The notes: generated by a model not told the origin, from the sequence alone. A stretch of DNA of 64,000 nt from Aulosira sp. ZfuVER01 (GCA_034530615.2 JAVRCV020000036.1:96001-160000), one strand, 5' to 3'; numbered from the stretch's first letter, positions 3,983-53,819 are shown. A program made the numbers and translations.

Positions 3983-5527
3983 CTAAAATCTTTCCTTACT
4001 CTCCTCTGCATGAAATAAATACTTCTCGCCTATCGTTGTAATAGCATTGAGAACTTCCTGAATATCCGCGATCGCAGTCTGAGGATTCAGCAAGGTAAAC
4101 TTCAGGTAGGTAAGTTGACCAATTTTTGTCTGTGCTATGACTGCAATCCCTTGCTGTAGTAAACTCATGCGAATGTGGCTATTGATTTGATTTGCCCAAG
4201 CTGTACTATCTATATGTGCTGGTGTTTGACTAGGAAGATAGCGAAAGACTACGGCGTTAATGGTGGGATAGTTTGCTAATTCTAATGCAGGTTCAGCCTT
4301 GATTAAACTGGCGGTTTCCTGAGCTAGTTCAATCGTAGTATCAATCATCTGTGCAAATTGTTTTTTCCCTAGAGTGCGGAGAGAGACAAACAATTTCAGC
4401 GCGTCGAATCGCTTAGTGGTTTGCACTGACTTAGTTACTAAATCGGGAATGCTAGCTGTTTCGTTGGTTTCAGGGTTGAGATAATCGGCGTGTAGCTTGA
4501 TTAAATCAAAGTGCTGACGCTGTTTAACTAAAAAAGCACCGCAGCTAATTGGCTGGTAAAACAGTTTATGGAAATCTACTGTGATAGAGTCAGCCAACGC
4601 AATCCCATCTAGTTTATCTCGATGGCGATCGCTGATTACCAATGCTCCACCAAAGGCCGCATCAACGTGCAGCCACAACCCATATTTCTCAGCACAGGCG
4701 GCTAATTCTGGTAGTGGGTCAATACTACCAAAATCTGTAGTACCTACAGTCGCCACTAAGGCAATTGGTAATAAATCCTGTCGCTGCAATTCTTCTAACT
4801 TCTGTTCTAACGCCGCCGAAGAAAGACGATAATCGCTATCAGTCTTCACTGTCACCACCGCTTGCTGTCCTAACCCTAATAAAGAAGCCGCTTGGCTAAT
4901 GGTGAAATGTGCAGCTTGAGAACAGAGGATACGAAAACGCTTGGCTTCTGGCGGTAATCCTTGCTGTTGCACAGACCAGTTTAACTGATAACGTGCATAA
5001 GCATCCCGCGCTAACAGCAATCCCATAAAATTCGATTGCGTACCGCCACTGGTAAAGATACCATCAGCATCAGCATCATAACCAAAACTTTCACACAGCC
5101 AATTTACCACCTGCTGTTCCAATACAGTCGCAGCCGGACTTTGATCCCAAGAATCCAGAGATTGATTAGTCCCACTAATCAACACCTCAGCCGCTAAAGC
5201 TGGTAATAACGGCGGACAATGCAAGTGAGCGATACAAGTAGGATGAGTCACCACCACCGAATGCTTGATGATACTCTCCCCCACCTCCGCCAAAACTTGA
5301 TTCAAAGCCACACCATCATCAGGACACACAGAAATCTCTGCAATAGTCCTAGTTAATTCCTGCGGACTCCTACCACTATAAGGCTTCTCTTGCGTAGCAA
5401 AACAATCAATCAATACGTCTTGAGCAGATGCGATCGCCTCTCGAAACAAACCCTTTTCATCAACAAAAAATTCAGCGAACTCTCTTGTTTGTACATCTGC
5501 TCCTTTGCGCGAAATCATAACCATCAA
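3983..5527 (-). CDS. rhbB: PLP-dependent L-2,4-diaminobutyrate decarboxylase
   Basis: Group II decarboxylase motifs AHLHCP, FTSGGTQSN, WLHVDAAFGG and DSITVDFHK. Operon context agrees. Confidence 0.9.
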   Translation of the reverse strand: MMVMISRKGADVQTREFAEFFVDEKGLFREAIASAQDVLIDCFATQEKPYSGRSPQELTRTIAEISVCPDDGVALNQVLAEVGESIIKHSVVVTHPTCIAHLHCPPLLPALAAEVLISGTNQSLDSWDQSPAATVLEQQVVNWLCESFGYDADADGIFTSGGTQSNFMGLLLARDAYARYQLNWSVQQQGLPPEAKRFRILCSQAAHFTISQAASLLGLGQQAVVTVKTDSDYRLSSAALEQKLEELQRQDLLPIALVATVGTTDFGSIDPLPELAACAEKYGLWLHVDAAFGGALVISDRHRDKLDGIALADSITVDFHKLFYQPISCGAFLVKQRQHFDLIKLHADYLNPETNETASIPDLVTKSVQTTKRFDALKLFVSLRTLGKKQFAQMIDTTIELAQETASLIKAEPALELANYPTINAVVFRYLPSQTPAHIDSTAWANQINSHIRMSLLQQGIAVIAQTKIGQLTYLKFTLLNPQTAIADIQEVLNAITTIGEKYLFHAEESKERF

Positions 5528-7005
5528 GACACCTGCGAAAGAACTGGCAAAATCTGCTGCTCCGCCGTCTGTACCGCAGCTGCAAAAATCTCACTAATAC
5601 TATCAATCTGCGCCGCAGTCACAATCAAAGGTGGTAAAAAGCGCACCACGCTACCAAATCTACCCCCCAATTCCACAATCAAACCCCGCCGCAAACACTC
5701 AGCTTGAATACAACTAGCCAACTGCGGATGTACGGGATACTTCCCACGCCGATCCGCCGATGCTTGGGGATTAATTATCTCCACACCTACCATCAAACCG
5801 CGTCCTCGTACTTCCCCAATACAGTAAGTTTCGCTTTGAATTTGACGCATGTGTTTTACCAAGCGATCGCCCATCGCCGCCGCGTGTTCAGTCAAGGAAT
5901 TTTCCAGAATATACTGTAGTGTCGCCGTTCCCGCCGCCATCGCCATTTGATTACCCCGGAATGTCCCCGCGTGTGCGCCTGGATTCCATTTATCTAGTTC
6001 TTTGTTGTATAAAACCACCGATAAAGGTAAACTTCCACCAATCGCTTTGGATAGTAACAATACATCTGGCACAATTCCCGAATGCTCGAAAGCGTAGAGT
6101 TTGCCAGTCCGTCCTAACCCTGTTTGAATCTCATCAACAATTAAGGGAATATGGCGATCGCGAGTAATCCGCCGCATCTCCCGCAACCAATCATCAGGCG
6201 CAGGAATTACCCCACCTTCCCCTTGTACAACTTCCAAAATCATCGCCGCCGGTGTCACAATCCCACTTTCAGGATCGTCCAAAATCGATTCTATATAACG
6301 GCTACTAGTGCGGTGTCCAGCTTCTCCACCCAAACCAAAAGGACAACGATAGTGATAGGGATAGGGTAAAAAGTGGACATCTGGCATTAACCCTGTCACC
6401 GCTTGTTTTGGATTGAGATTCCCGGTTAAACTCAATGCACCATGCGTCATGCCATGATAACCACCATGAAATGACAACACGCTACGTTTACCAGTGGCAG
6501 TTTTCACCAGCTTAATCGCCGCTTCTACTGCATCTGCTCCCGAAGGTCCACAAAACTGAATCTTGGCATTTTCCGCAAATTCCGCAGGTAAACTAGCAAA
6601 AAGTTCTTCAACAAACCTATCTTTAACTGGAGTAGTCAAATCTAGAGTATGCAAAGGTAAACCTGTATCTAGCACCTTTCGCATCGCTGCGATCGCGACT
6701 GGGTGATTGTGTCCTAATGCTAAAGTGCCTGCACCAGCCAAACAATCAAAATACACATTCCCATCTGCATCTTTGATGTAAATCCCCTGAGCCTCGCTAA
6801 TTGCAATCCGAATCCGTCGGGGATAGCTTCTAGCATTTGATTCTCGTGCTTGCTGACGTTCTAGATATTGACTTGATGCCGGGCCAGGTACGGAAAGCAC
6901 GCGACTACCAGCAAAATCAGACTCTATACTACTCTGCGATGGAGATATCTGCGGCAATACTAAAGAATAGCCTTCAGAATGCTGGCCATTTTGATTGAGT
7001 TGCAT
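5524..7005 (-). CDS. rhbA: Diaminobutyrate-2-oxoglutarate transaminase
   Basis: ESNARSYPRR, GAGTLALGHNHP, DEIQTG, SKAIGG and HAGTFRGNQ (class III aminotransferase). ATGA overlap with rhbB. Confidence 0.92.
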   Translation of the reverse strand: MQLNQNGQHSEGYSLVLPQISPSQSSIESDFAGSRVLSVPGPASSQYLERQQARESNARSYPRRIRIAISEAQGIYIKDADGNVYFDCLAGAGTLALGHNHPVAIAAMRKVLDTGLPLHTLDLTTPVKDRFVEELFASLPAEFAENAKIQFCGPSGADAVEAAIKLVKTATGKRSVLSFHGGYHGMTHGALSLTGNLNPKQAVTGLMPDVHFLPYPYHYRCPFGLGGEAGHRTSSRYIESILDDPESGIVTPAAMILEVVQGEGGVIPAPDDWLREMRRITRDRHIPLIVDEIQTGLGRTGKLYAFEHSGIVPDVLLLSKAIGGSLPLSVVLYNKELDKWNPGAHAGTFRGNQMAMAAGTATLQYILENSLTEHAAAMGDRLVKHMRQIQSETYCIGEVRGRGLMVGVEIINPQASADRRGKYPVHPQLASCIQAECLRRGLIVELGGRFGSVVRFLPPLIVTAAQIDSISEIFAAAVQTAEQQILPVLSQVS

Positions 7006-43430: not shown

Positions 43431-43585
43431 TTATACCATTTTAGATTTTAGATTTTGCGGAAAGTTGCGTGCGGGGGTTCCCCCCGTTGAGCAAACTTTT
43501 CAGGACAGATTTTGGATTGTGAAACATCTATTGGATAAGCGTTTCAGATTTCCATCTGTCGCAATCATTTTTCAAATTGGTATTA
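43431..43585. mobile_element. MITE-like element of the 3887 family with a nested repeat
   Basis: TTATACCATT...AATTGGTATTA, with an internal GGAAAGTTGC..GGGGGTTCCCCC..GCAAACTTT insert splitting the GATTTT(A/G) heptamers. Confidence 0.65.
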
Positions 43586-43590
43586 AAACT

Positions 43591-43634
43591 ACAAAAAAAT
43601 AAAGAGACTGATATTTTTGTTAACCAGTCTCTTT
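43591..43634 (-). terminator. Intrinsic terminator of the peptidoglycan-binding gene
   Basis: AAAGAGACTG...CAGTCTCTTT followed by a T run on the minus strand. Confidence 0.7.
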
Positions 43635-43662
43635 GATGATGTGTCACTTGAGTTAGCTAGAT

Positions 43663-44043
43663 TTACTTCATTGCAGCCAAAGTCCGGCGTCCAATGATTC
43701 CATCTGCTTTTAAGCCTTTAGATTTTTGGAATTTCATAACAGCTGAACGTGTCTCTTTATTAAAGACACCATTCACATTTCCGGTGTACAATCCTTGCTT
43801 CTTTAAAAAGTCTTGAGCAACTTTAACTGATTGTCCTTGGCTACCTAATCTTAAGGCGATAGTTTGGTTTGCCTTAGTAGTAGGCTTTTTCGCAACATTA
43901 GTCTTTTTGGTAGCGCTAACTTTAGGTTGTGTAACTTGAGTATGGTTAGTAGTATTTGGGCTTTTATTAGTCATCTGAGAGTACGCTGGCACAGCAGTAG
44001 CTAGAGTCAGCATCGGGATTACAGCAAGTAATTTCCAATTCAT
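43663..44043 (-). CDS. Secreted peptidoglycan-binding domain protein (PG_binding_1)
   Basis: Signal peptide ending PAYS, then LRLGSQG..V...Q..L...G.F...T..AV.KFQ...GLKADGIIG..T. Confidence 0.88.
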   Translation of the reverse strand: MNWKLLAVIPMLTLATAVPAYSQMTNKSPNTTNHTQVTQPKVSATKKTNVAKKPTTKANQTIALRLGSQGQSVKVAQDFLKKQGLYTGNVNGVFNKETRSAVMKFQKSKGLKADGIIGRRTLAAMK

Positions 44044-45184
44044 ATTTCTTTTTCCACCACACAGAAATTGCAATTTGCAAAGTCAGTAATTTTCTCAGGG
44101 CATTGCCTGATAATTCCTAACTGGTAAACACTGGTGTTTGTTATAGCTTGATACTATTTACCCATCCAGAGTTGAATCAAGCATCACATATCCTATTGAC
44201 AGAGCTATTGCAAAACTATGACAAAATTATGTCTAATTTAAGCATTATTTTTTAGGTAAATAAAAAGACAAATTTATTTATGTAACACTGTTAAAAGGGA
44301 ACTTAGAATGGGCAACAGCAACAGGAAAATCTCCAATTTAGAAGCGCATTGGCTGAGTCTGTTTGTTACTCAACTTTAAATTCTCATCTGTAAAAAACAA
44401 AGAATCCCCTCAATGCCTATTAATTTTAGGCTATTTGAGGGGTTCAAATGTTGCAGCAAAAAGTGAATTACTATTCAGTTAACAGCCTTCTGGTTAACAT
44501 TTCAATAAGGCTAAGTTAAGTTTGCGTAAAGAAACTGTCAAAGATTCATAAAGATTAACCAGGTAATGCAGCCATTATCCACTGGAAATATATGGCAGCG
44601 GTGGTTTTGGGGAATTTTTGACTCAGTAAAAATATTTAGAACTTGATTCTGACACAGAAAGTTATTGCTGACGAGAGGGTTTGCTCCCCTCATATCAATT
44701 TTGGATTTTGGATTTTGGATTTTAGATTAAGAAAGGCAGTCCCAATGAAGCAGGGGAGCAGGGGGAAGAAATGTTTGACTCTTGAGTGTTGACTCTGGAC
44801 TCTTAACTCTTGACAAAAAGAAATAATCCGCGATCGCACCCTCCTTTGCCAAGAGCGATCGCGAATCTCACCAATCATGATTGCCAAATTTATCTTTATG
44901 CCGCACCTTAATCTAATTTTCTGCCTCTAATGCCACTATGCGGCAGATTTCATAGATGCACTTGATTTTTAGGAATGGATTGAGATTGATTATCTGAGAT
45001 ATCCAACAGAAAATAACTAACAAAAAGCACAATTTTAAACTTTATTTATGCAAATTTTTGTTATGAAAAATTAGTTAATTTTTTTGAATTTTTAATTTTG
45101 AGGTTTTGAATTATCGTAAAGCGAAGGTCGCATTTTTTGTGTTATAAAACTCACAGCAATTTATCTTAGAGCAAAAAATACTCT

Positions 45185-47716
45185 ATGGAAACAGAACAAC
45201 TGGAGCGTTTTAAAGAATATGGCGAATTCATCCTCCAGAAATTAGACTCTGTGCCTGAATATCCCTCTAAGCAAGAAGATTGGGTACCAGCTAGTCTTGA
45301 TGAGAGTCTGTTTCGCCTGCGGGAAGCTGCTGAGAAAACTGTAGAACTTGCTACTTCACCAGTAAAAATTGGGGTGATGGGTGAATTTAGTAGCGGTAAA
45401 ACTTTGCTATTAGGCAGCTTAATCGGATACGCCGATGCTTTACCAGTTAGTGAAAACCCTACCACGGGCAACGTTACAGCCATCCACATCATACCCCATG
45501 ACGGCTTTGCTACTACCCAGTTAGGCAACTTTAAAGTCGAGTATCTTTCTCATGAAGGTGTGAGTGATTGTCTGCGCTTCATGGTTGGGGAAGCCAATCG
45601 CCGCACAATCGCCGCCGGACTACTACCTGCGCTGCTAACGAAGCTAAAAGAACCAAAAGATATTCTCATCTGGTGTGAGGAAACATGGAGAAGTAGCAAT
45701 AATTTAGAGTTACGTTATTTGCTGCGGGAATTAGTATTATTTATTCGCGCTTATCAAGCTTACGGCGAAGCAATGTGTGGTGGATGCTACCAAATTGATG
45801 CTAACACTGCCCGTGAGGGATTGCAGCTTGCCGAGCAGCCAATGGCAATTCAAACTATTAGCTTTGATGATTTACCGCCTGCTCATATCAAATTACCAAG
45901 TCCGCCGCAAACATTAACAACAAAGTTATTGCAGAATAGTTTCCCACTAATTCGTCGTGTGGATATAGAGGTCAAAATCTCACGAGAAATTTGGGATGTT
46001 ACAGGTGCATCGGAATTTATTTTGCTTGATTTTCCGGGATTGGGTGCTGCAAATTCTGGTGCAAGAGATACATTTTTATCACTGCGAGAATTAGCCGAAG
46101 TCCAGACAATTTTAGTGCTGTTAAATGGTAAATCGCCAGGAAGCGATCGCGCCAATAAAATCTTTACTATGATGCAGCAGCAGCGACCAGGACAAGACCT
46201 CAAGGATCTAATTTTGGTAGGTGTGGGACGCTTCGACCAACTTCCTTTAGAAAGTGAAGGTGGGGAACGAGAACTCGACCAACTAATTAACGATAACGGC
46301 GATTATCCCTTACACGAAAGTAGCGTTTTCCAAAAACTCAAAGTTCTGCAAACTACTATTGATGGTGCTAGTGCTTTTACCACCAAAAAAGACCGCATTG
46401 TTTTACTCTCACCACTACTAGGACTAGCAGACTTAGCCAAACGTTCAACTACGGTAAAAGCCGGTTCGCCGGAATTTTTAGCTAATCTAGACTATCCCGA
46501 TTATTTAGACCGTTCCAAGCGGTTACAAGATAAATGGGGAACTTTAAGCGATCGCTTATTAGCATCTGATGCGCGTAACTATCTCGGTAGACAACTAGGT
46601 TACTTCGCTCAAGATGGTGGGATTAGTAAGCTGCGGGAATTGATTCAAAATCACGTAGCTACTCACGGTCTGAAACAACTTTATGAAGACACTAAAAGGT
46701 CTGCTGATACTGTACGTCAACAACAGGATAACCTGAAAATTATCCTCGAAGAAATTCACGAGCAAGGTATACCAACCGCAGACAGTCCAGCTTTGCTAGA
46801 TTTGCGAGATGTGATTGAAAATTTGGATAAAACCTACAGAAATTTCCAAAAAGATTTAGGTAAAGAACCACTTAAAGATAGACGCGGAATTGGTGTCAGC
46901 GATGTAGTTAAAGATGAGCTAACATATAGAATTCTTAATTGGAATCAGTGGACTTTACTATTCAACAAATCCAATAATGGCACAATTGCACTCACCGAAT
47001 CTAAAGGTGCAGCCGGGAAATTATTTGATAGAGGAAACAGAGTTAATACTACCATTCCTACCAAAAGCGACGATTTTTATCCCACCTTTGCCAAGACTGT
47101 TCAAGAATTAGAAGAATTTGCCCGCGATCGCATTCGTCAAGCGATTGGAGATTTACTGACCAAACTATCAAACGTTGTCGCCCAAGAGCGTGAATATTTG
47201 TTAGCAAATCTCAACCCTGAAATGGAATCAGATCTCGAATCTAAATTTGGTATTGAAGAAGCTGAACTTTTTTATAAACTGCTGTTAGGGTGCGATCCTA
47301 ATCAATGGCAAGAAGCTATCATCTCAGAAATTCATAGCAAAGAAAGAGCAATCTCACCAGAAATTATCTTTCCCTTAGCGCGTCAAGATGAGAAACACAA
47401 TATAGGACAAATCTTTGATTGGGCACCAGAACGCAATGGTTCCTCCAAATCCAATAATCATCAACTTTTTGTACTGCGACTGCGGGATGAAATTACTGCT
47501 AGTGCCAGTCTACACCTTGTGCAATATGTTAGCGAAGTCAATCAACAAGTGAATGCAGAATTAGCAGGTGTTTTGGATCAAATTATTCCCAGTTTGCAAA
47601 ATCTTTCTAAAAAAGAAGCATTGCTGAGATATATAGCCGCTGGAGAATCATCACAGCTAGCAATTCCTACTTGGTTGCAAATTCTTTCAGATGTTGCAGT
47701 TATTAATTATCGGTAA
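45185..47716 (+). CDS. Dynamin-like / SrfC-like P-loop GTPase
   Basis: G1 GEFSSGKT, G2 NPTTG, G3 LLDFPG, G4-like GRFD and a long helical C-terminus. Confidence 0.8.
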   Translation: METEQLERFKEYGEFILQKLDSVPEYPSKQEDWVPASLDESLFRLREAAEKTVELATSPVKIGVMGEFSSGKTLLLGSLIGYADALPVSENPTTGNVTAIHIIPHDGFATTQLGNFKVEYLSHEGVSDCLRFMVGEANRRTIAAGLLPALLTKLKEPKDILIWCEETWRSSNNLELRYLLRELVLFIRAYQAYGEAMCGGCYQIDANTAREGLQLAEQPMAIQTISFDDLPPAHIKLPSPPQTLTTKLLQNSFPLIRRVDIEVKISREIWDVTGASEFILLDFPGLGAANSGARDTFLSLRELAEVQTILVLLNGKSPGSDRANKIFTMMQQQRPGQDLKDLILVGVGRFDQLPLESEGGERELDQLINDNGDYPLHESSVFQKLKVLQTTIDGASAFTTKKDRIVLLSPLLGLADLAKRSTTVKAGSPEFLANLDYPDYLDRSKRLQDKWGTLSDRLLASDARNYLGRQLGYFAQDGGISKLRELIQNHVATHGLKQLYEDTKRSADTVRQQQDNLKIILEEIHEQGIPTADSPALLDLRDVIENLDKTYRNFQKDLGKEPLKDRRGIGVSDVVKDELTYRILNWNQWTLLFNKSNNGTIALTESKGAAGKLFDRGNRVNTTIPTKSDDFYPTFAKTVQELEEFARDRIRQAIGDLLTKLSNVVAQEREYLLANLNPEMESDLESKFGIEEAELFYKLLLGCDPNQWQEAIISEIHSKERAISPEIIFPLARQDEKHNIGQIFDWAPERNGSSKSNNHQLFVLRLRDEITASASLHLVQYVSEVNQQVNAELAGVLDQIIPSLQNLSKKEALLRYIAAGESSQLAIPTWLQILSDVAVINYR

Positions 47717-47967
47717 AAAAATCCTAATTTCTCTCCTATTTCCTTCCTTCGTGTTCTTCGTGTCCTTTGCGGTTCGTTTAAAAAATGATCAAGAAACGAA
47801 CCGCATTCGGCAAAGCTGTTCCCGCAGGGTAGACGCAAAGGACGCAAAGTTAAGAATAAAAGTTAAAAATTTGAGAGTTTCACTAAAGATTTTGTAATCT
47901 CAAAAACCTCATTTTCTCTGCGTCTCTGCGTGAGACAAATCCTCAATTAAATTAACCCCTCAATACC

Positions 47968-50928
47968 ATGAACTCCTCCCAACTAAATAGCGAACAACAA
48001 AAAAGATTCCCCGGATGGTTTGCCCTAGATTTTGGCACATCCAACTCCACAGTCACACTCTTCGATCCCATTGAAGTACCCATCGCCGAAGTATTACCCA
48101 AAGAACAAGAAATGCGATTACGCGATCGCATGGCACAATGGTTGAATTCTCCCGCCGGAATTGCTTTACCAGATGTCAGCGCTAGCGACTGGGAAAAATT
48201 CATTGCTGATATTAGTAAAAATTTGGAGATAGAACCCAGCCGCTTAAGTGAAGTTTTTGAAAGTGATAATAAAGAGCGATTTTTAGAAGCACTACGCCAA
48301 ATTGAATTATGCTTAGGTACAAGCGATCGCTTCCGACGCGCAGTCAGCAAAAAACTTTATCAGATATATCATGAAGTCTTCCGCGTTCCGACTCTAGAAT
48401 CGCAAAATCTTATCCCAGTAGTATTAGATATCGATCGCCGCAGCACAGAAATTAAAAGCGAGTTGGAAATTGCTAAACTTGCTGCTTTAAAACTTAAAAT
48501 GGGTAGGGAAGCCAGCGATAATAGAAAAAAAGCGATCGCCCAAGGAACCAGCAGTGTTTTAAAAGAAATTATTAGCCGCTTTCATCACTCGCCCAAACGC
48601 TATTTTGGTCAGGATCGTTCTTTCCCAGTTATTTTAGATGAAGAAGAACAAACAATTAACGTCAACCAATTAGTTCAAGCAGCTTGGGGACATTTAATTG
48701 AGTTAACAGAAGACTACCGCCGACGCGCCAGACGCAGATTTTCGGAAGGGGATTTTCTCTCCGCAGTTGTTACCTATCCCACCGTCGCCCCGCCTGTTGT
48801 GCGTAAGGAAGTTAAGGAATTAGTTGAACAGTTAGGGCTGGATGATGTTCAAACTGCTTATGATGAAGCCGTTTCTGTGGCGATATTTTTCTTATGGCGA
48901 GAATTTGGCGGTAATCTCAACATTGGGATTGAATCTTTCAAAACTCGTTGTCGCCAAGAGGGAAATAAATGGTCACAAAATGTTCTGGTTTTAGATATTG
49001 GTGGCGGAACTACAGACTTAGCATTAATTGAATTAACTTTAGAAGATAGAACTCCCTTCTTTGCCGATAACGAAGATAGAGGTTTAGGGGGACGCTACTA
49101 TAGACTCACACCCAAACTATTAGGTTCTTCTGGGCATTTACAGCTAGGTGGCGAGTTAATTACCCTAAGAATATTCAGGCTTTTAAAAGTAGCGATCGCA
49201 GACTTTTTATTAACAGCAGTCACTAACGGTGATGTAGAAAGTGACAAGTTAGAAGATTTAATTAACTCGGAATTAAACGAACGTTTTCTAGAGAATGGAC
49301 AATTCAAAAGCGGCAGTATTTTGAAATGTTTGGATAAAGAAAATCCCGAAGGTGACGCTGCTTATAAAGATGCTTTAGATACGGCTGAGAAAGTATTACC
49401 TACTCGTTGGCAACAAGCACCCCAACGCCTACAAACTTTTTATACTCTTTGGGATCATGCTGAAGCTGCCAAAATCAAACTCGGACAAAAGCCACCAGAA
49501 GACGGTTCTCCCCTAACCTTCAGTCTCTCAGAACAGCACATTTATGAGTTACTAACTCAAAGTGCAATTAAATATCAGGTAAAAGATGCCAGTAGCATTT
49601 GCGTCACCATCGATAGTCAGCAATTCGATCGCGCTGCATCATCAGCCATTAAAGAAGCGATTGGTATAGCCCAAGGTTTGATGGATAGTCGCTTACGTCC
49701 CGAAGATAGCACCATCGATTCTTGGAATACCCACAAAGTTGATTGGCTAATTTTATCGGGTAAAACTTGCAGCCTCGACCTCGTACAGCGCTACATTTAC
49801 CAAGAATTTAGCAAATCGCCTTATTTCGTCTGGAATCCCGAACGAATTACCTTTGTGTTGGAATTTACCAAATTAGCCACCTCTGCCGGTGCTTGCTATG
49901 CCGAAAAACTACGTAGATTGAGATTCGACCCTGAAGAGTCAAAAGGATTACTACGTAAGGGAGCAAACCAACTAGAAATTGATGTCAAAAACCTGTTTTA
50001 TTATTTACCCTGCAACTTCAAACGCAAAACCCAAAGTAACGAACTGCTGACAATCTTTAAAGCCGGACAAGAACTTTATCAACTAGCCGCTGGAGAAAGC
50101 GTAGCCAAAGTTCGGACTGAGTGGCAAGGGATACAATTAACTAACATTATTTACCGTCAAGACTACGAAGATGGCGACTTGCGGCTTTGGGGTAGCTTCG
50201 ATGGCAAAACCTTGATGGAGAAACTAGGGTTATTAGAAGCAGATTTCTTGAAAAAAATCAAAGTCCAGTTTGAAATCGATCAAACCTTGCAATTTAGCGT
50301 TTTGCTTTGTCAAGGAAATCCTCATTATTTAATAGATGTTTCTGGGATTGATGTAACTTCAGTCATCTCCGCCGCCTCAAAAACATCTACGCTATTTGCA
50401 GATGGTAAATTAAAGTGGAACATTGCCATTGAACGCCCCAATAAAGACTTAAATGATGGTGATATTGCCATCAACGTAATCGAGTCAGCAACCGTCGATC
50501 AACCGGATGCTTATCATTTAGTATTTGAAGCCGACAAAGATGTCAGTAAATCGCTGCAAGAATTTCATTATTTACGCGATGGTTCCCCAGAACCAGGAAC
50601 CGGATTAATTAGTAATCCCTTACCTCCATTCCCCAAAAATGGACAACATACTTTTTATGTTGTACAAACAGATGCACAAACCAATACTAAAAAATGGATA
50701 CGCATCGGCGCATTAAGTAAACCAGATGTCACCACAGATTACCCTTGCCAATATCGTGTAACTCTCGACAATCAAGGTATTTTGCGAATGCACGCCGGGG
50801 AAGTACCTTACTGGACATCAAACAAGCAAGAAAGCCTCAAGCAACCTGGATGTGTTTACCGCGCCGAACTAGAGTTGCAACCCAACGAAGTGGATAAAGA
50901 ACGCGATCCTTTTTGCGGGATTCATTAG
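47968..50928 (+). CDS. Divergent Hsp70/actin-fold ATPase (SrfB-like)
   Basis: ALDFGTSNS, DEAVSVA, VLVLDIGGGTTD, LGGELIT, AEAAKIKL and LILSGKT. Confidence 0.85.
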   Translation: MNSSQLNSEQQKRFPGWFALDFGTSNSTVTLFDPIEVPIAEVLPKEQEMRLRDRMAQWLNSPAGIALPDVSASDWEKFIADISKNLEIEPSRLSEVFESDNKERFLEALRQIELCLGTSDRFRRAVSKKLYQIYHEVFRVPTLESQNLIPVVLDIDRRSTEIKSELEIAKLAALKLKMGREASDNRKKAIAQGTSSVLKEIISRFHHSPKRYFGQDRSFPVILDEEEQTINVNQLVQAAWGHLIELTEDYRRRARRRFSEGDFLSAVVTYPTVAPPVVRKEVKELVEQLGLDDVQTAYDEAVSVAIFFLWREFGGNLNIGIESFKTRCRQEGNKWSQNVLVLDIGGGTTDLALIELTLEDRTPFFADNEDRGLGGRYYRLTPKLLGSSGHLQLGGELITLRIFRLLKVAIADFLLTAVTNGDVESDKLEDLINSELNERFLENGQFKSGSILKCLDKENPEGDAAYKDALDTAEKVLPTRWQQAPQRLQTFYTLWDHAEAAKIKLGQKPPEDGSPLTFSLSEQHIYELLTQSAIKYQVKDASSICVTIDSQQFDRAASSAIKEAIGIAQGLMDSRLRPEDSTIDSWNTHKVDWLILSGKTCSLDLVQRYIYQEFSKSPYFVWNPERITFVLEFTKLATSAGACYAEKLRRLRFDPEESKGLLRKGANQLEIDVKNLFYYLPCNFKRKTQSNELLTIFKAGQELYQLAAGESVAKVRTEWQGIQLTNIIYRQDYEDGDLRLWGSFDGKTLMEKLGLLEADFLKKIKVQFEIDQTLQFSVLLCQGNPHYLIDVSGIDVTSVISAASKTSTLFADGKLKWNIAIERPNKDLNDGDIAINVIESATVDQPDAYHLVFEADKDVSKSLQEFHYLRDGSPEPGTGLISNPLPPFPKNGQHTFYVVQTDAQTNTKKWIRIGALSKPDVTTDYPCQYRVTLDNQGILRMHAGEVPYWTSNKQESLKQPGCVYRAELELQPNEVDKERDPFCGIH

Positions 50929-51108
50929 GGTAAATAACTCACGCAGAGGCGCAGAGGCGCAGAGAGGAGTTAATGAGAAAGTGATTTAATAAAACAAAGA
51001 GTTTTACTCTCTTAAAGACATCTTCTTCTGTGTACTCTGCGTCTCTGTGGTTTGTTTAAATCTTACCTTCGCGTCAGGTAAAAAACAGGTAATCTGGAGG
51101 CGGTATTC

Positions 51109-52194
51109 ATGCAGCACCTACGTCAGTTATTAGAAACAGAAAACTCACAATTAGCTCAATTACTCCGGTTTAGCCTGTATGGAATTGCCGCTTCTTTAAA
51201 GCAAGTGCAAACAGAATTTCCTCTCGATCCAGGGGCTAAATTATGCGACGAAGTGCTGCAAGAAATTCACAGCTTATTACAACCTACATCTCTACAATCT
51301 AACTCTACAAATGAATTAAAACTAAGTCGCCTCCGCGAAGAATTCGACGCAGATAAAGAACTCAAATTGTATTTAGGAAATTCCCAATTACAAAGCCAAA
51401 CAGACGCAGAATTATGGAATGAGATTCAACGCAAGCTGCTGCGAGTTCCAGAAGACTTGGCCACAGCTTGGCGACAACGCGCCTTAACTCTGGCTGAGGA
51501 AACTGGTGCAGTAGAAAATACTTCGGATCTCTACCTCCTACCCTTCATCCGAGATGAAATTATTTACCCCGGGCTAAGTGGTACTGTCCAAGCTAAGGGT
51601 TTATGTTTGTCTCAAAAATCACTATCTTTTACAGAAATTGCCCAAGCTAGTGAATCAAAAGATTTAAATTTTCTAGTTGGTTACTTACTTTTGTGTATAA
51701 ATTTTATCGAGATAGAACCAGATTTACATCATGCTTTAAAGAGCGTTTTCAGCTTTGATATTGTCTCCTTACACTCCAAGCCAGAACAGCAAAATCAATA
51801 CATTGAAGCTTTAACACATCGCTTTCAACGCACACAAAAAGCTGTGGAAAATGCCGATCCAATATCAACTCTACGTGCTTGGATTGACATGGATGAGGCA
51901 ATTCATTCTTTAGTATTTGTTCCTCCAGGCGATCGCTATTCTTGGTGGGGTAATTTACAACAAGAATCACGGCGTATGCTGAAAAAATTTGTAGATGAGG
52001 CAATTAAAGCAGGTAATGAAGTCCGAATTCGCCAATTATCAGGTCTTTACGCCGATATATGCGCTTTAACAAAAGATGACTTGCAACTAGATTGTGGCGG
52101 AAATCCTGGGGAAGTATTGACTTGTCTGCGAGTCTACGCGCGAATTAATCAAGAAGAATCTCCAGGGCGGGTAATATTTCGCTCATCACGGTAG
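51109..52194 (+). CDS. Hypothetical protein with a possible GrpE-like C-terminal beta domain
   Basis: SD GGAGG. Helical body and C-terminus PGEVLTCLRVYARINQEESPGRVIF. The GrpE similarity is by eye only. Confidence 0.6.
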   Translation: MQHLRQLLETENSQLAQLLRFSLYGIAASLKQVQTEFPLDPGAKLCDEVLQEIHSLLQPTSLQSNSTNELKLSRLREEFDADKELKLYLGNSQLQSQTDAELWNEIQRKLLRVPEDLATAWRQRALTLAEETGAVENTSDLYLLPFIRDEIIYPGLSGTVQAKGLCLSQKSLSFTEIAQASESKDLNFLVGYLLLCINFIEIEPDLHHALKSVFSFDIVSLHSKPEQQNQYIEALTHRFQRTQKAVENADPISTLRAWIDMDEAIHSLVFVPPGDRYSWWGNLQQESRRMLKKFVDEAIKAGNEVRIRQLSGLYADICALTKDDLQLDCGGNPGEVLTCLRVYARINQEESPGRVIFRSSR

Positions 52195-52271
52195 GCTGTG
52201 GGGCAATGGTCAGTAATGATTTAAAAGTCTTAATCTGAATCTTGATGATTTCATCTGTAGAATGACTAGCA

Positions 52272-52661
52272 CTACTTGAGCGTTTGCACATCAGAATAGT
52301 TAAGAATTTTCGCATCCACAGTTAGCAAATAACAATTATAAAATCTCGCTGTAGCCACAATAAGTTGGTCAAACGGGTCACTGTGGAAGCCGCTTAATTG
52401 AGTTGAATCAATTACTATTGGCAGGGACAAATTTAATAGTTGTACACCAGGATAAGCTAAAGCAACTTCTAGCCATTGATCAATAGTCAAAGGTAGAATT
52501 AATCTTTTTTTCTCTACCAATTTGGCTACCTCCCAGCAAGAAAGAATGCTCACTCCTAAACCGTCAGACTCGTAATCTTGTAACCATTGTCGCTGTTGTT
52601 GGGTCAGTCGTGAATCGTTCTGAACCCACCAAACCCAAATATGAGTATCAAGTACAATCAT
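52272..52661 (-). CDS. vapC: PIN-domain VapC toxin
   Basis: IVLDTHIWVW, S.WEV, HSDPFDQLIVATA and LLTVD. Confidence 0.9.
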   Translation of the reverse strand: MIVLDTHIWVWWVQNDSRLTQQQRQWLQDYESDGLGVSILSCWEVAKLVEKKRLILPLTIDQWLEVALAYPGVQLLNLSLPIVIDSTQLSGFHSDPFDQLIVATARFYNCYLLTVDAKILNYSDVQTLK

Positions 52662-52900
52662 TGCAAAACTTCCCAGTCCTCTAAAGCGACGGGTTCTGTG
52701 GGGTCGTCATAACGGTATGGCTGTGTGTTGTGCAAAGAATAAGGATTTGTACCTGATTGGGGTAAATGTTGGGCTTGTTGCTGCGGAGTTTTAGTTTCCA
52801 GAATAATCACTTCCACAGCATCTCCAGCATGAAAGGGTAAACCTTGTAATGTCAGAGTTCCATCTTCACTTAAAACGACTTCTACCTTGTGAGCATTCAT
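52658..52900 (-). CDS. Putative antitoxin
   Basis: 80 aa, ATGA overlap with vapC, DG.L.L..LPF..GD.VEVII fold and an acidic tail. Confidence 0.75.
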   Translation of the reverse strand: MNAHKVEVVLSEDGTLTLQGLPFHAGDAVEVIILETKTPQQQAQHLPQSGTNPYSLHNTQPYRYDDPTEPVALEDWEVLQ

Positions 52901-52937
52901 ATTTCAACACAGTAATCAAGGAATAGATGGGCAAGAA

Positions 52938-53819
52938 TCACAAAGAGCCAGCAATCATCCCCGCCAGTAAGATAAAACCAATCCAGACATTTTGGCGGAA
53001 CATCGCACCATAAGCAGAGTTGGGTAAATTGGGCTTGCTTAACTGTAGTGACTGCCAAACCCAGCCAACTGTGGCAATTACTAGGCTAATCCAAAAAGCA
53101 ATGTGAAGGTTGATCGCAATACCTAAGCTAGCAAGTAAGGCAATTGTGCCAGCATAGAAAATGCCAATCGCTACAGGGGCGTAATTACCAAAAAACAGGG
53201 CGCTAGAATTAATACCAATGCGTCTATCGTCCTCGCGATCGCTCATAGCATAGACAGTATCAAATCCTAATGTCCACAGTACTGTCGCACCCCAAAGTAA
53301 CCAAGTTGGTTGGGAGATATTTTGAGTAACAGCACTCCAGCTAATTAACACAGCAAAACCCCAAGCAATCGACAGCACCAATTGCGGTACAGGAAAAACT
53401 CGCTTCGCCCCTGGATACAATAAAATGACAGGCACAGCTGCCGCAGACAACCAAAAAGTTAAGGGGTTGAGATAAAACGCCAGAACTGCGGCACAAAACA
53501 GCGCTACTATTCCCACACCAATCCCCACTTTAATCGACAGTGTACGGGCAGCTAGGGGGCGATCGCGGGTTCTTTCCACTTCTGGATCGATATCCCGATC
53601 CCACAAATCATTGACAACGCACCCCGCCGCACTAGTGGCGAGAGTCCCCAAGATAATTACGCCCACTAAAGGCAAAGGTGGTTTACCTGCGGCTGCCAAA
53701 AAAACTGCCCAAAGTGCAGGAATCATCAAAATTAATCGTCCTTCTGGTTTATGCCACCGCAAAAGCCGAAAAATTACCAGCCACATCGGTTCTTGGTTGC
53801 TTTCTGGGGTTCTAAGCAT
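52938..53819 (-). CDS. ubiA: 4-hydroxybenzoate solanesyltransferase (plastoquinone synthesis)
   Basis: LRWHKP.G, NDLWDRDID..VERT..RPL and DTVYAMSDREDD. Confidence 0.92.
   Translation of the reverse strand: MLRTPESNQEPMWLVIFRLLRWHKPEGRLILMIPALWAVFLAAAGKPPLPLVGVIILGTLATSAAGCVVNDLWDRDIDPEVERTRDRPLAARTLSIKVGIGVGIVALFCAAVLAFYLNPLTFWLSAAAVPVILLYPGAKRVFPVPQLVLSIAWGFAVLISWSAVTQNISQPTWLLWGATVLWTLGFDTVYAMSDREDDRRIGINSSALFFGNYAPVAIGIFYAGTIALLASLGIAINLHIAFWISLVIATVGWVWQSLQLSKPNLPNSAYGAMFRQNVWIGFILLAGMIAGSL

Follow-up and report, generated by a model that had tools for sequence, protein, structure and literature searches.

A conserved putative operon joining a divergent dynamin-like GTPase, an Hsp70-fold ATPase and a protein with a predicted GrpE-like domain in heterocyst-forming cyanobacteria

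The DNA analysed here is a stretch of 64,000 nucleotides from Aulosira sp. ZfuVER01 (GCA_034530615.2 JAVRCV020000036.1:96001-160000), which we call the window. It contains three co-oriented open reading frames (ORFs) for proteins of 843, 986 and 361 amino acids, exactly where a first-pass annotation made from the sequence alone had placed them and had read them as a dynamin-like GTPase, a divergent Hsp70 and a GrpE-like protein. These ORFs are referred to as gene 1, gene 2 and gene 3, and together as the trio. The trio is a conserved chromosomal three-gene unit, putatively an operon, of heterocyst-forming cyanobacteria. Stated most safely, it is the operon of the published chaperone clade of cyanobacterial dynamins, which now has three parts, the third being an orphan by sequence and, as judged from its predicted structure, a GrpE-like partner of the Hsp70. 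The novelty is moderate: a dynamin paired with an Hsp70 was already known, and what is added is the third partner and the phyletic pattern.

The three genes and their products

Judged from its motifs, gene 1 encodes a very divergent, soluble GTPase of the dynamin family. It reaches the cut-off of the Pfam model Dynamin_N (PF00350) marginally, with 27.1 bits against 27, and the match spans residues 62-103, the G1-G2 part, only; it is partial because about 190 residues separate G2 from G3. All 12 aligned orthologues match Dynamin_N at E <= 0.01, the best of them at 1.3e-9, and all 120 gene 1 homologues among the matches listed carry PF00350. Homologues at E <= 1e-3 came to 605 scored candidates, which public databases name "dynamin family protein" or, oddly, "proteasome protein". 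The neighbours of gene 1 in a language-model atlas are Dynamin_N clusters, some of them mostly from Actinomycetota, Chloroflexota or Myxococcota. Of the G1-G4 motifs listed in the first-pass annotation, G1 (GEFSSGKT), G2 (PTTGNVT) and G3 (DFPG) are invariant in all 12 aligned orthologues; the fourth did not stand in its canonical form and is taken up below. The same genome contains two canonical dynamin-like genes in tandem, whose open frames have 696 and 750 amino acids, and another of 828 amino acids, so that gene 1 is one of at least four dynamin-like genes. In an hhalign comparison with the canonical ORFs of this genome, gene 1 aligned only over the G1-G2 stretch (probability 75%, 49 columns) and, weakly, over G3-G4.

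The product of gene 2 is, on the evidence of its modelled fold, a genuine Hsp70-fold ATPase with intact catalytic motifs and a much enlarged nucleotide-binding domain (NBD). It scores 12.2 bits (E 0.05) against the Pfam model HSP70 (PF00012), under the cut-off of 20.6 bits, and 12-13 bits against NCBIfam DnaK models with cut-offs of 648-822, and its family profile found nothing among the PDB sequences. The AlphaFold2 (AF2) model, built from a 30-sequence alignment (pLDDT 71.6, pTM 0.56), gave 268 Foldseek matches at E <= 1e-3, topped entirely by Hsp70s (DnaK 7kzu, 9.4e-16), the best 50 rows all being NBDs of the Hsp70 family. In the model the NBD (about residues 14-650) has a complete, two-lobed, actin-like Hsp70 topology with about 280 inserted residues; the nucleotide-binding motifs and the large insertions noticed at first pass were thus both seen again, by sequence and by fold. 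In 30 orthologues the phosphate-1, phosphate-2, catalytic-glutamate and adenosine motifs do not vary, and they presumably correspond to residues of DnaK. About 100 residues past the NBD align with the beta part of the DnaK substrate-binding domain (SBD-beta; 2v7y with 453 residues aligned over 14-973, 5obu with 458), which suggests that the C-terminus contains an SBD-beta-like unit. The C-terminal domains are modelled as beta-rich with modest confidence (pLDDT 50-75), and lid helices were not seen in them. At E <= 1e-3, homologues of gene 2 came to 489 scored candidates.

Many orthologues of gene 2 (P0127, P0165, P0230 and others) have 1127-1147 amino acids, about 140 more than the protein encoded here, and carry a conserved N-terminal domain of about 130 amino acids that runs from MPVEIRLPPRFQ to VEYFDSD. 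A mis-called start of gene 2 was considered and rejected, since tblastn showed that the domain is truly missing here: it was found in one locus of the same genus (64% identity) and neither in the window nor in eight other same-genus loci. Its presence in one and absence from eight of these nine loci point to a recent loss. The position of the domain is taken in the window by the hairpin repeats of spacer 1.

The best Pfam match of gene 2 is not HSP70 but SrfB (PF07520), and the trio might accordingly be read as a cyanobacterial version of the SrfABC operon, which in Xenorhabdus is reported to be a three-component cytotoxin acting on eukaryotic cells. SrfABC, known from Salmonella and Xenorhabdus, is also a three-gene operon around an Hsp70/actin-fold protein of about 1000 amino acids, with an SrfB similar in size to gene 2, 114 kDa (PMC6950479, in the part of the text available), a weak local SrfB match was present in 30 of 30 aligned orthologues of gene 2 (best 4e-6), and some of these bear the NCBI label "virulence factor SrfB". 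However, the match of gene 2 scores 23.7 bits, under the cut-off of 27.1, and is confined to positions 508-583 of the 992-position model, in the shared phosphate-2 region. Genes 1 and 3 have no SrfA- or SrfC-type family among their Pfam matches at E <= 1, the order of the genes differs, no secretion signal or transmembrane (TM) segment was found, and the biology is different, the hosts being free-living phototrophs that have the trio as part of their core genes. We regard a SrfABC operon as a very improbable identity for the trio.

Gene 3 and 90 members of its family have no Pfam match, and the other libraries were likewise blank. NCBIfam returned nothing above its cut-offs for the trio proteins, and PDB sequence searches with each of the three proteins and with the family profiles gave nothing significant, the gene 3 profile finding no GrpE among them. 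When the gene 3 family was compared with 32 cyanobacterial GrpE ORFs, the hhalign probability was 0.4%. The family forms 222 clusters at 50% identity, and homologues at E <= 1e-3 came to 338 scored candidates. The AF2 model of gene 3, made from a 90-sequence alignment, is confident (pLDDT 95.4, pTM 0.84). It begins with helices at the N-terminus, continues with a small beta unit (134-168) and a bundle of four helices (184-300), and ends in a beta-domain (304-361, or 305-358 in narrower limits). Foldseek found nothing at E <= 1e-3 for this model; the chains at ranks 1, 2, 4, 5, 6, 8 and 9 were those of GrpE, with E values of 0.084-0.8, and the match covers 57 of the 361 residues. No long dimerising helix was identified. 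The most conserved residues of the family are E263, R354, D262, W279, W280 and R288, the first two being invariant. The first-pass annotation had based the likeness to GrpE on a C-terminal string, which is present at residues 333-357. Its claim held for the predicted fold, as the C-terminus of gene 3 is modelled as a GrpE-beta-domain-like fold, and failed for the sequence, by which gene 3 is not a member of the GrpE family; the resemblance is that of a small fold.

The complex of the two proteins, a prediction proposed at first pass, was modelled with residues 14-650 of gene 2 and full-length gene 3, using separate alignments, in three runs and with three controls. The interface score ipSAE was 0.77, 0.71 and 0.78 (median 0.77), and the best of the three controls reached 0.00; the mark applied to this score is reached by 116 of 157 solved complexes and by 2 of 215 mismatched pairs. 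At least 92% of the contacts agreed between the runs, and the pLDDT of the partners was at least 84. On gene 2 the contacts lie at residues 155-158 and 181-192, between the phosphate-1 strands and the TYPT segment, and at 488-496, 522-531 and 541-542, between GGE and ILSGK; by motif positions these regions are equivalent to lobe IB and lobe IIB, respectively. On gene 3 they involve bundle residues 212-260 and beta-domain residues 314-361. Gene 3 is predicted in this model to dock across the NBD cleft of gene 2 and to bridge the two lobes. GrpE opens DnaK by bridging lobes IB and IIB, and we take the predicted contact, going by the 1DKG complex, to be of the same GrpE-DnaK mode.

A predicted contact that spans IB and IIB, as that of an exchange factor would, makes it quite unlikely that gene 3 is instead an adaptor or substrate-like co-factor whose small beta-domain is shared with GrpE by chance, and which would, for instance, tether the ATPase to the dynamin or lock it in one state, while the ATPase itself might polymerise in the manner of actin or SrfB. 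Gene 2 also fits Hsp70 NBDs far better than any other fold among the matches listed, the best 50 Foldseek rows being without exception of that family, and both its invariant Hsp70 catalytic motifs and the further residues aligned with SBD-beta argue in the same direction. What such an adaptor would explain is the absence of sequence homology between gene 3 and GrpE, the restriction of the GrpE fold to 57 of 361 residues with an unrelated N-terminal 300, and the position of invariant gene 3 residues outside the predicted NBD interface. The rank of SrfB before HSP70 among the Pfam matches of gene 2 would also agree with it, as would the faint matches to MreB and FtsA that appeared in single members of the gene 2 family.

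Linkage, selection and distribution

All three genes are under strong purifying selection. The ratio of nonsynonymous to synonymous substitutions (dN/dS), from four pairwise comparisons of orthologous loci for each gene, was lowest for gene 2, at 0.04-0.08; gene 1 had 0.08-0.09 and gene 3 0.10-0.14. Gene 2 is present in 26 of 41 sampled relatives, its own genome counted: all 24 further genomes sampled from its family have it, as does 1 of 16 from other families of the order. Within the window's family the gene 3 profile at E <= 1e-5 found a member in 34 of 35 genomes, and it found none in 265 other cyanobacteria. Orthologues were listed from the Nostoc sp. PCC 7120 accession series and from Trichormus variabilis ATCC 29413. 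A separate search with a gene 2 alignment gave 347 relatives, of which the best 80 were all Nostocales-like and contributed names but not distant contexts.

The linkage of the three genes, claimed at first pass for this genome, extends to the others. Among 20 loci around gene 2, the order 1-2-3 on one strand was found in 17, of which one contains a gap of 6.6 kb, another has gene 1 split into three parts, and a third is a divergent second copy with gene 2 broken; in the other three the contig is too short, gene 1 lies about 360 kb off, or genes 1 and 2 are fragmentary. Around gene 3, 32 further loci were inspected and the trio was contiguous in 29; where gene 3 stands apart (3 of 32), genes 1 and 2 still sit side by side at another place in the genome, so that the full set is kept. 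One complete genome of 6.9 Mb is without all three genes. In one 4.9-Mb genome none of the three is intact: a large internal deletion affects gene 2, gene 1 is fragmented, and gene 3 is split over three frames at another site. The three genes thus co-occur, are co-retained and decay together across genomes. The genes flanking the trio are conserved within the genus only. No relative of gene 2 was found in viral contigs or in the plasmid collection, and a Streptomyces relative of gene 3 had no match in the plasmid collection either.

Two copies of the trio are carried by genome G016 (C4:1634295-1638552 and C3:131033-135194; loci L014 and L016). The proteins of the second copy are 49-63% identical to those of the window, and its gene 2 is interrupted by stops, which points to an old duplication or to a transferred copy that later decayed.

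Distant relatives of gene 3, with 28-31% identity, are labelled as proteins of Streptomyces, Actinocorallia and Okeania. When metagenomes were scanned with an alignment of the actinobacteria-like gene 3 subgroup, six loci were obtained. A gene 2-like ORF lies directly 5' of the gene 3-like ORF wherever there is enough upstream sequence (4 of 4), and a gene 1-like ORF precedes it wherever there is still more (2 of 2). The high-GC contig L185 has the full trio order, with stops and starts at 6627/6633 and 10001/10001 and few-base overlaps; L182 (stop/start at 4021/4024) and L183, also high-GC contigs, have the order of genes 2 and 3. Neighbouring ORFs on these three contigs encode TIR-domain, bifunctional-nuclease-domain, vWA and FHA proteins, a second Hsp70 (577 amino acids) and a transposase.

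Most of these neighbours (the TIR, second Hsp70, bifunctional-nuclease-domain, vWA and FHA genes) would suit a different reading, in which the trio is a nucleoside triphosphate-dependent conflict system, anti-phage or abortive-infection, of multicellular bacteria. Its GTPase would sense or threshold an invader signal, and the chaperone pair would drive a membrane-active or protective complex. Systems that combine a GTPase with HSP70 and GrpE have been published for multicellular bacteria (PMC7159879, in the part available), and the family of the trio extends to filamentous actinobacteria (Streptomyces, Actinocorallia). The PADLOC model for LeoA matches gene 1 weakly (2e-5), a VapBC-like pair adjoins the trio in the window, and a bacterial dynamin is said in the accessible part of a review to delay phage lysis (PMC9950537). 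However, in the sampled genomes of the family the trio is chromosomal, present once and found almost without exception (24 of 24 and 34 of 35), unlike patchy defence islands, and because of this distribution we favour a core cell-biological role over a mobile defence cassette. Evolution is slow (dN/dS 0.04 for gene 2) while the flanks differ between genera, no match to viral contigs or plasmids was found, and the VapBC-like pair is not conserved beside the trio. Neither an effector domain nor a TM pore nor a nuclease was found in the three proteins by Pfam, NCBIfam, PADLOC and hydrophobicity. PADLOC, suggested at first pass as a check for defence systems, called none: the LeoA match is confined to residues 5-102 of gene 1, LeoB and LeoC were not found, genes 2 and 3 have no Leo matches that would make the trio an Eleos/LeoA system, and the only other match was PDC-M61B at 0.035. 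In addition, the GTPase of the published systems is of a different, DO type and is accompanied by GAP1, for which no search was made here, and the conflict-like neighbours come from three metagenome contigs. A conflict system is, in our view, a rather unlikely explanation for the trio.

Spacers, upstream region and neighbouring genes

The coordinates of the trio, of its surroundings and of related genes elsewhere in the genome are given in Table 1.

Table 1. Features of the trio locus and related genes in the same genome; positions without a contig prefix are those of the window.
Feature	Position	Strand	Basis
Gene 1, divergent dynamin-like GTPase, 843 aa	45185-47716	+	ORF
Gene 2, oversized Hsp70-type ATPase, 986 aa	47968-50928	+	ORF
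Gene 3, partner protein of an unnamed family, 361 aa	51109-52194	+	ORF
Spacer 1, 251 nt, GC-rich hairpin repeats	47717-47967	+	repeat count, folding
Spacer 2, 180 nt, long perfect-stem hairpin of CGCAGAG/CTCTGCG repeats	50929-51108	+	repeat count, folding
Putative promoter and short 5' leader of the trio	45133-45184	+	cross-genus conservation; promoter role inferred
Upstream PG_binding_1 (peptidoglycan-binding-domain) ORF	43663-44073	opposite to gene 1, divergent	
PIN-domain ORF, 129 aa, toxin-like	52272-52661	-	PF01850, 5.4e-13
Further dynamin-like genes	C4:188340-190967, C68:22355-23041		
GrpE-domain ORFs	C80:49267-49749, C73:35791-36420, C15:36012-36386, C73:211658-212071		

The spacers between the three genes are indeed filled with repeats, as had been noted at first pass. 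The 15-mer CTCTGCGTCTCTGCG, with up to two mismatches, occurs four times in the window, where 0.04 matches are expected, and all four lie within spacers 1 and 2. Heptamer-based CTCTGCG/CGCAGAG repeats (47916-47934, 50938-50964 and 51035-51049) are likewise found in the two spacers and nowhere else in the window. Spacer 1 folds into a stable hairpin with a minimum free energy (MFE) of -53.4 kcal/mol (z -2.99), and spacer 2 reaches an MFE of -66.2 kcal/mol (z -7.06), with none of 200 shuffles as stable. The lengths of the spacers differ widely from genome to genome. The repeats may be small mobile intergenic elements, or they may be elements for the processing or stability of the mRNA.

The gap between the PG_binding_1 ORF and gene 1 measures 1111 nt, in agreement with the 1.1 kb given at first pass. 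That this region might be a long regulatory leader was considered and rejected, since its conservation across genera is limited to the last ~52 nt. The block at 45133-45184 (TTTTTTGTGTTATAAAACTCACAGCAATT...) is the only one kept throughout 12 aligned upstream regions from several genera, the rest of the gap being variable and filled with repeats. An extended -10-like element, TGTTATAAA, lies in it at 45140-45148, about 37 nt 5' of the ATG of gene 1, and the block is likely, as far as its sequence tells, the proximal promoter with the leader. A generic promoter scan left the block unflagged; that promoter and terminator scan did no better than on shuffles (14 versus 18.0 and 7 versus 7.6).

Farther upstream, a block of about 150 nt (~44540-44695) is kept within the genus and has a GC-rich hairpin (GAGAGGGTTTGCTCCCCTC) at its end. 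It is followed at 44696-44830 by tandem heptamer repeats, the unit of which is TTTTGGA here and another in every genome. The block may represent either a gene for a small RNA or a terminator beside STRR-type repeats. Rfam gave 0 matches at E <= 1 over 43500-53000.

Downstream of gene 3, an 80-amino-acid ORF, which has no Pfam match, lies upstream of the PIN-domain ORF and overlaps it by 4 nt (the pair within 52272-52900, minus strand). By domain content and layout this is a VapBC-like arrangement, as first described, and a UbiA-family gene and then a Ppx/GppA gene lie beyond it. The pair was considered as a part of the module and rejected, as other genera do not have it next to the trio. HIP1-type GCGATCGC sites occur in the window and, with the best protein matches, assign it to a Nostoc/Calothrix/Tolypothrix-like cyanobacterium. 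Elsewhere in the genome four ORFs score above the GrpE cut-off of Pfam, one of them canonical (166 bits) and three divergent (45-73 bits). Two to five GrpE-domain ORFs were also present in several other sampled cyanobacteria.

Proposed mechanism and comparison with known systems

A private cycle of an Hsp70 and its exchange factor acting on the dynamin is the most likely mechanism, and we consider its chances of being correct to be even. The bundle and the GrpE-like beta-domain of gene 3 would clamp across lobes IB and IIB of gene 2, and gene 3 may in this way set the ATPase cycle of gene 2, either by nucleotide exchange or by opening the cleft. By analogy with other Hsp70 cycles, this private cycle would load, remodel or disassemble dynamin oligomers on membranes. 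The role of the trio may then be the remodelling or repair of membranes in filamentous, differentiating cells.

Several observations weigh against this proposal. What connects the chaperone pair with the GTPase is gene linkage, and the trio is without a gene for a J-protein, unlike the DnaK-GrpE cycle. The predicted interface is not conserved in the way that might be hoped for: mean entropy at the gene 3 interface is 2.47 versus 2.44 elsewhere, with 55% of random sets as low, the gene 2 interface is less conserved than the remainder (0.99 versus 0.73), and E263, R354, D262, W279, W280 and R288 of gene 3 are all outside the contact list. The score of the complex may partly reflect likeness to known structures, because solved DnaK-GrpE complexes exist. 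On the side of the GTPase, the G4 site of gene 1 is GVGRF[D/N] (ending in D in eight of the 12 orthologues and in N in the other four) and not the canonical [NT]KxD, and because of this variation the guanine-specifying aspartate is not fixed; a hydrophobic or TM segment was looked for in gene 1 and none was found. One homologue of gene 1 (P0284) is labelled as plasmid-borne, on a 1.78-Mb replicon, and the gene company in the high-GC contigs, three in number, is typical of conflict systems.

The proposed chaperone cycle can be taken further, to a self-contained "dynamin recycling machine" in which the private Hsp70 and the GrpE-like factor load or disassemble the dynamin polymer. Such a machine would be a lineage-defining core function of heterocyst-forming cyanobacteria, tied to membrane remodelling in multicellular, differentiating filaments, with cousins in filamentous actinobacteria. 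In this full form the idea is tentative and, we think, doubtful; if true, the trio would be a prokaryotic counterpart of the Hsp70-driven uncoating or remodelling of membrane-shaping polymers.

Bacterial dynamins are widespread, and their cellular roles and regulators are mostly unknown. The near-universal retention of the trio in the sampled genomes of one large family of multicellular cyanobacteria, its common loss and decay, and its recurrence in high-GC contigs tie a dynamin to an Hsp70-type ATPase and to a partner that is predicted to clamp the cleft of this ATPase. If the dynamin is indeed controlled by the chaperone pair, this would be the first regulator system dedicated to a bacterial dynamin, and gene 3 would show that an exchange module can be GrpE-like and yet invisible to sequence searches. 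The hypothesis is directly testable, as orthologues exist in genetically tractable model strains.

The closest known counterpart is the survey of Jilly et al. 2018 (PMC5827413), in which cyanobacterial dynamin-like proteins were sorted into clades, including a "chaperone clade" followed by a DnaK-domain gene. The available part of this paper lists 11 genes for the clade, all from Nostocales and with a DnaK-domain or molecular-chaperone gene downstream, among them Cylst_0498, and Nos7524_3124 with "Virulence factor SrfB" downstream. Genes 1 and 2 belong to this gene family and show its pairing, with gene 2 immediately downstream of gene 1, and orthologues are found in the listed strains. Gene 1 is 80% identical to a dynamin family protein of Cylindrospermum stagnale PCC 7417; the orthologue of gene 3 is Cylst_0501, and P0332 would, from the order of the accessions, be Cylst_0498. 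The first-pass description of the module as undescribed therefore does not hold for the dynamin and DnaK-domain pairing. It stands for the third gene: in the part of the survey available, which is a sequence survey, there is no mention of a third gene or a GrpE-like domain, nor of the all-or-none phyletic pattern, of relatives outside the cyanobacteria or of experiments on the clade. A full-text search, whose coverage left out most subscription journals, found no functional study of a dynamin-Hsp70-GrpE-like module.

The DnaK-GrpE cycle (1DKG, 4ANI, 9BLS) shares with the trio the full Hsp70 NBD fold and catalytic motifs of gene 2 and, according to the models, the helices, the GrpE-like beta-domain and the bridging of IB and IIB by gene 3. 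Unlike GrpE, gene 3 has about 300 unrelated N-terminal residues and no sequence similarity to that family, and unlike DnaK, gene 2 has about 280 inserted residues in its NBD, scores below the HSP70 cut-off and has a model in which no helical lid was seen.

GAP1-N2-type conflict systems, in which a GTPase is linked to HSP70 and GrpE in multicellular bacteria, were described by Kaur, Burroughs, Iyer and Aravind 2020 (PMC7159879). As far as the available part of that work goes, they resemble the trio in the combination of a GTPase, an Hsp70 and an exchange factor and in their enrichment in bacteria of multicellular habit. They differ in having another GTPase, which is combined with GAP1 and proteins with FNIII repeats, in their canonical GrpE and in frequent fusions to DnaJ, whereas the GTPase of the trio is of the dynamin type and its partner is not recognisable as GrpE by sequence. 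Furthermore, they are reported mainly from actinobacteria and firmicutes, whereas the trio is a core set in one sampled cyanobacterial family.

With respect to function, two systems in which an Hsp70 cycle sets the oligomeric state of a membrane-remodelling protein offer an analogy, and an analogy only. Hsc70 together with auxilin uncoats clathrin. In chloroplasts, cpHsc70-1 acts on VIPP1 oligomers, according to the available part of PMC12798727. The clients in these two systems, clathrin and VIPP1, are not homologous to gene 1, and the client proposed for the trio would, as its gene linkage suggests, be the dynamin encoded in the same operon.

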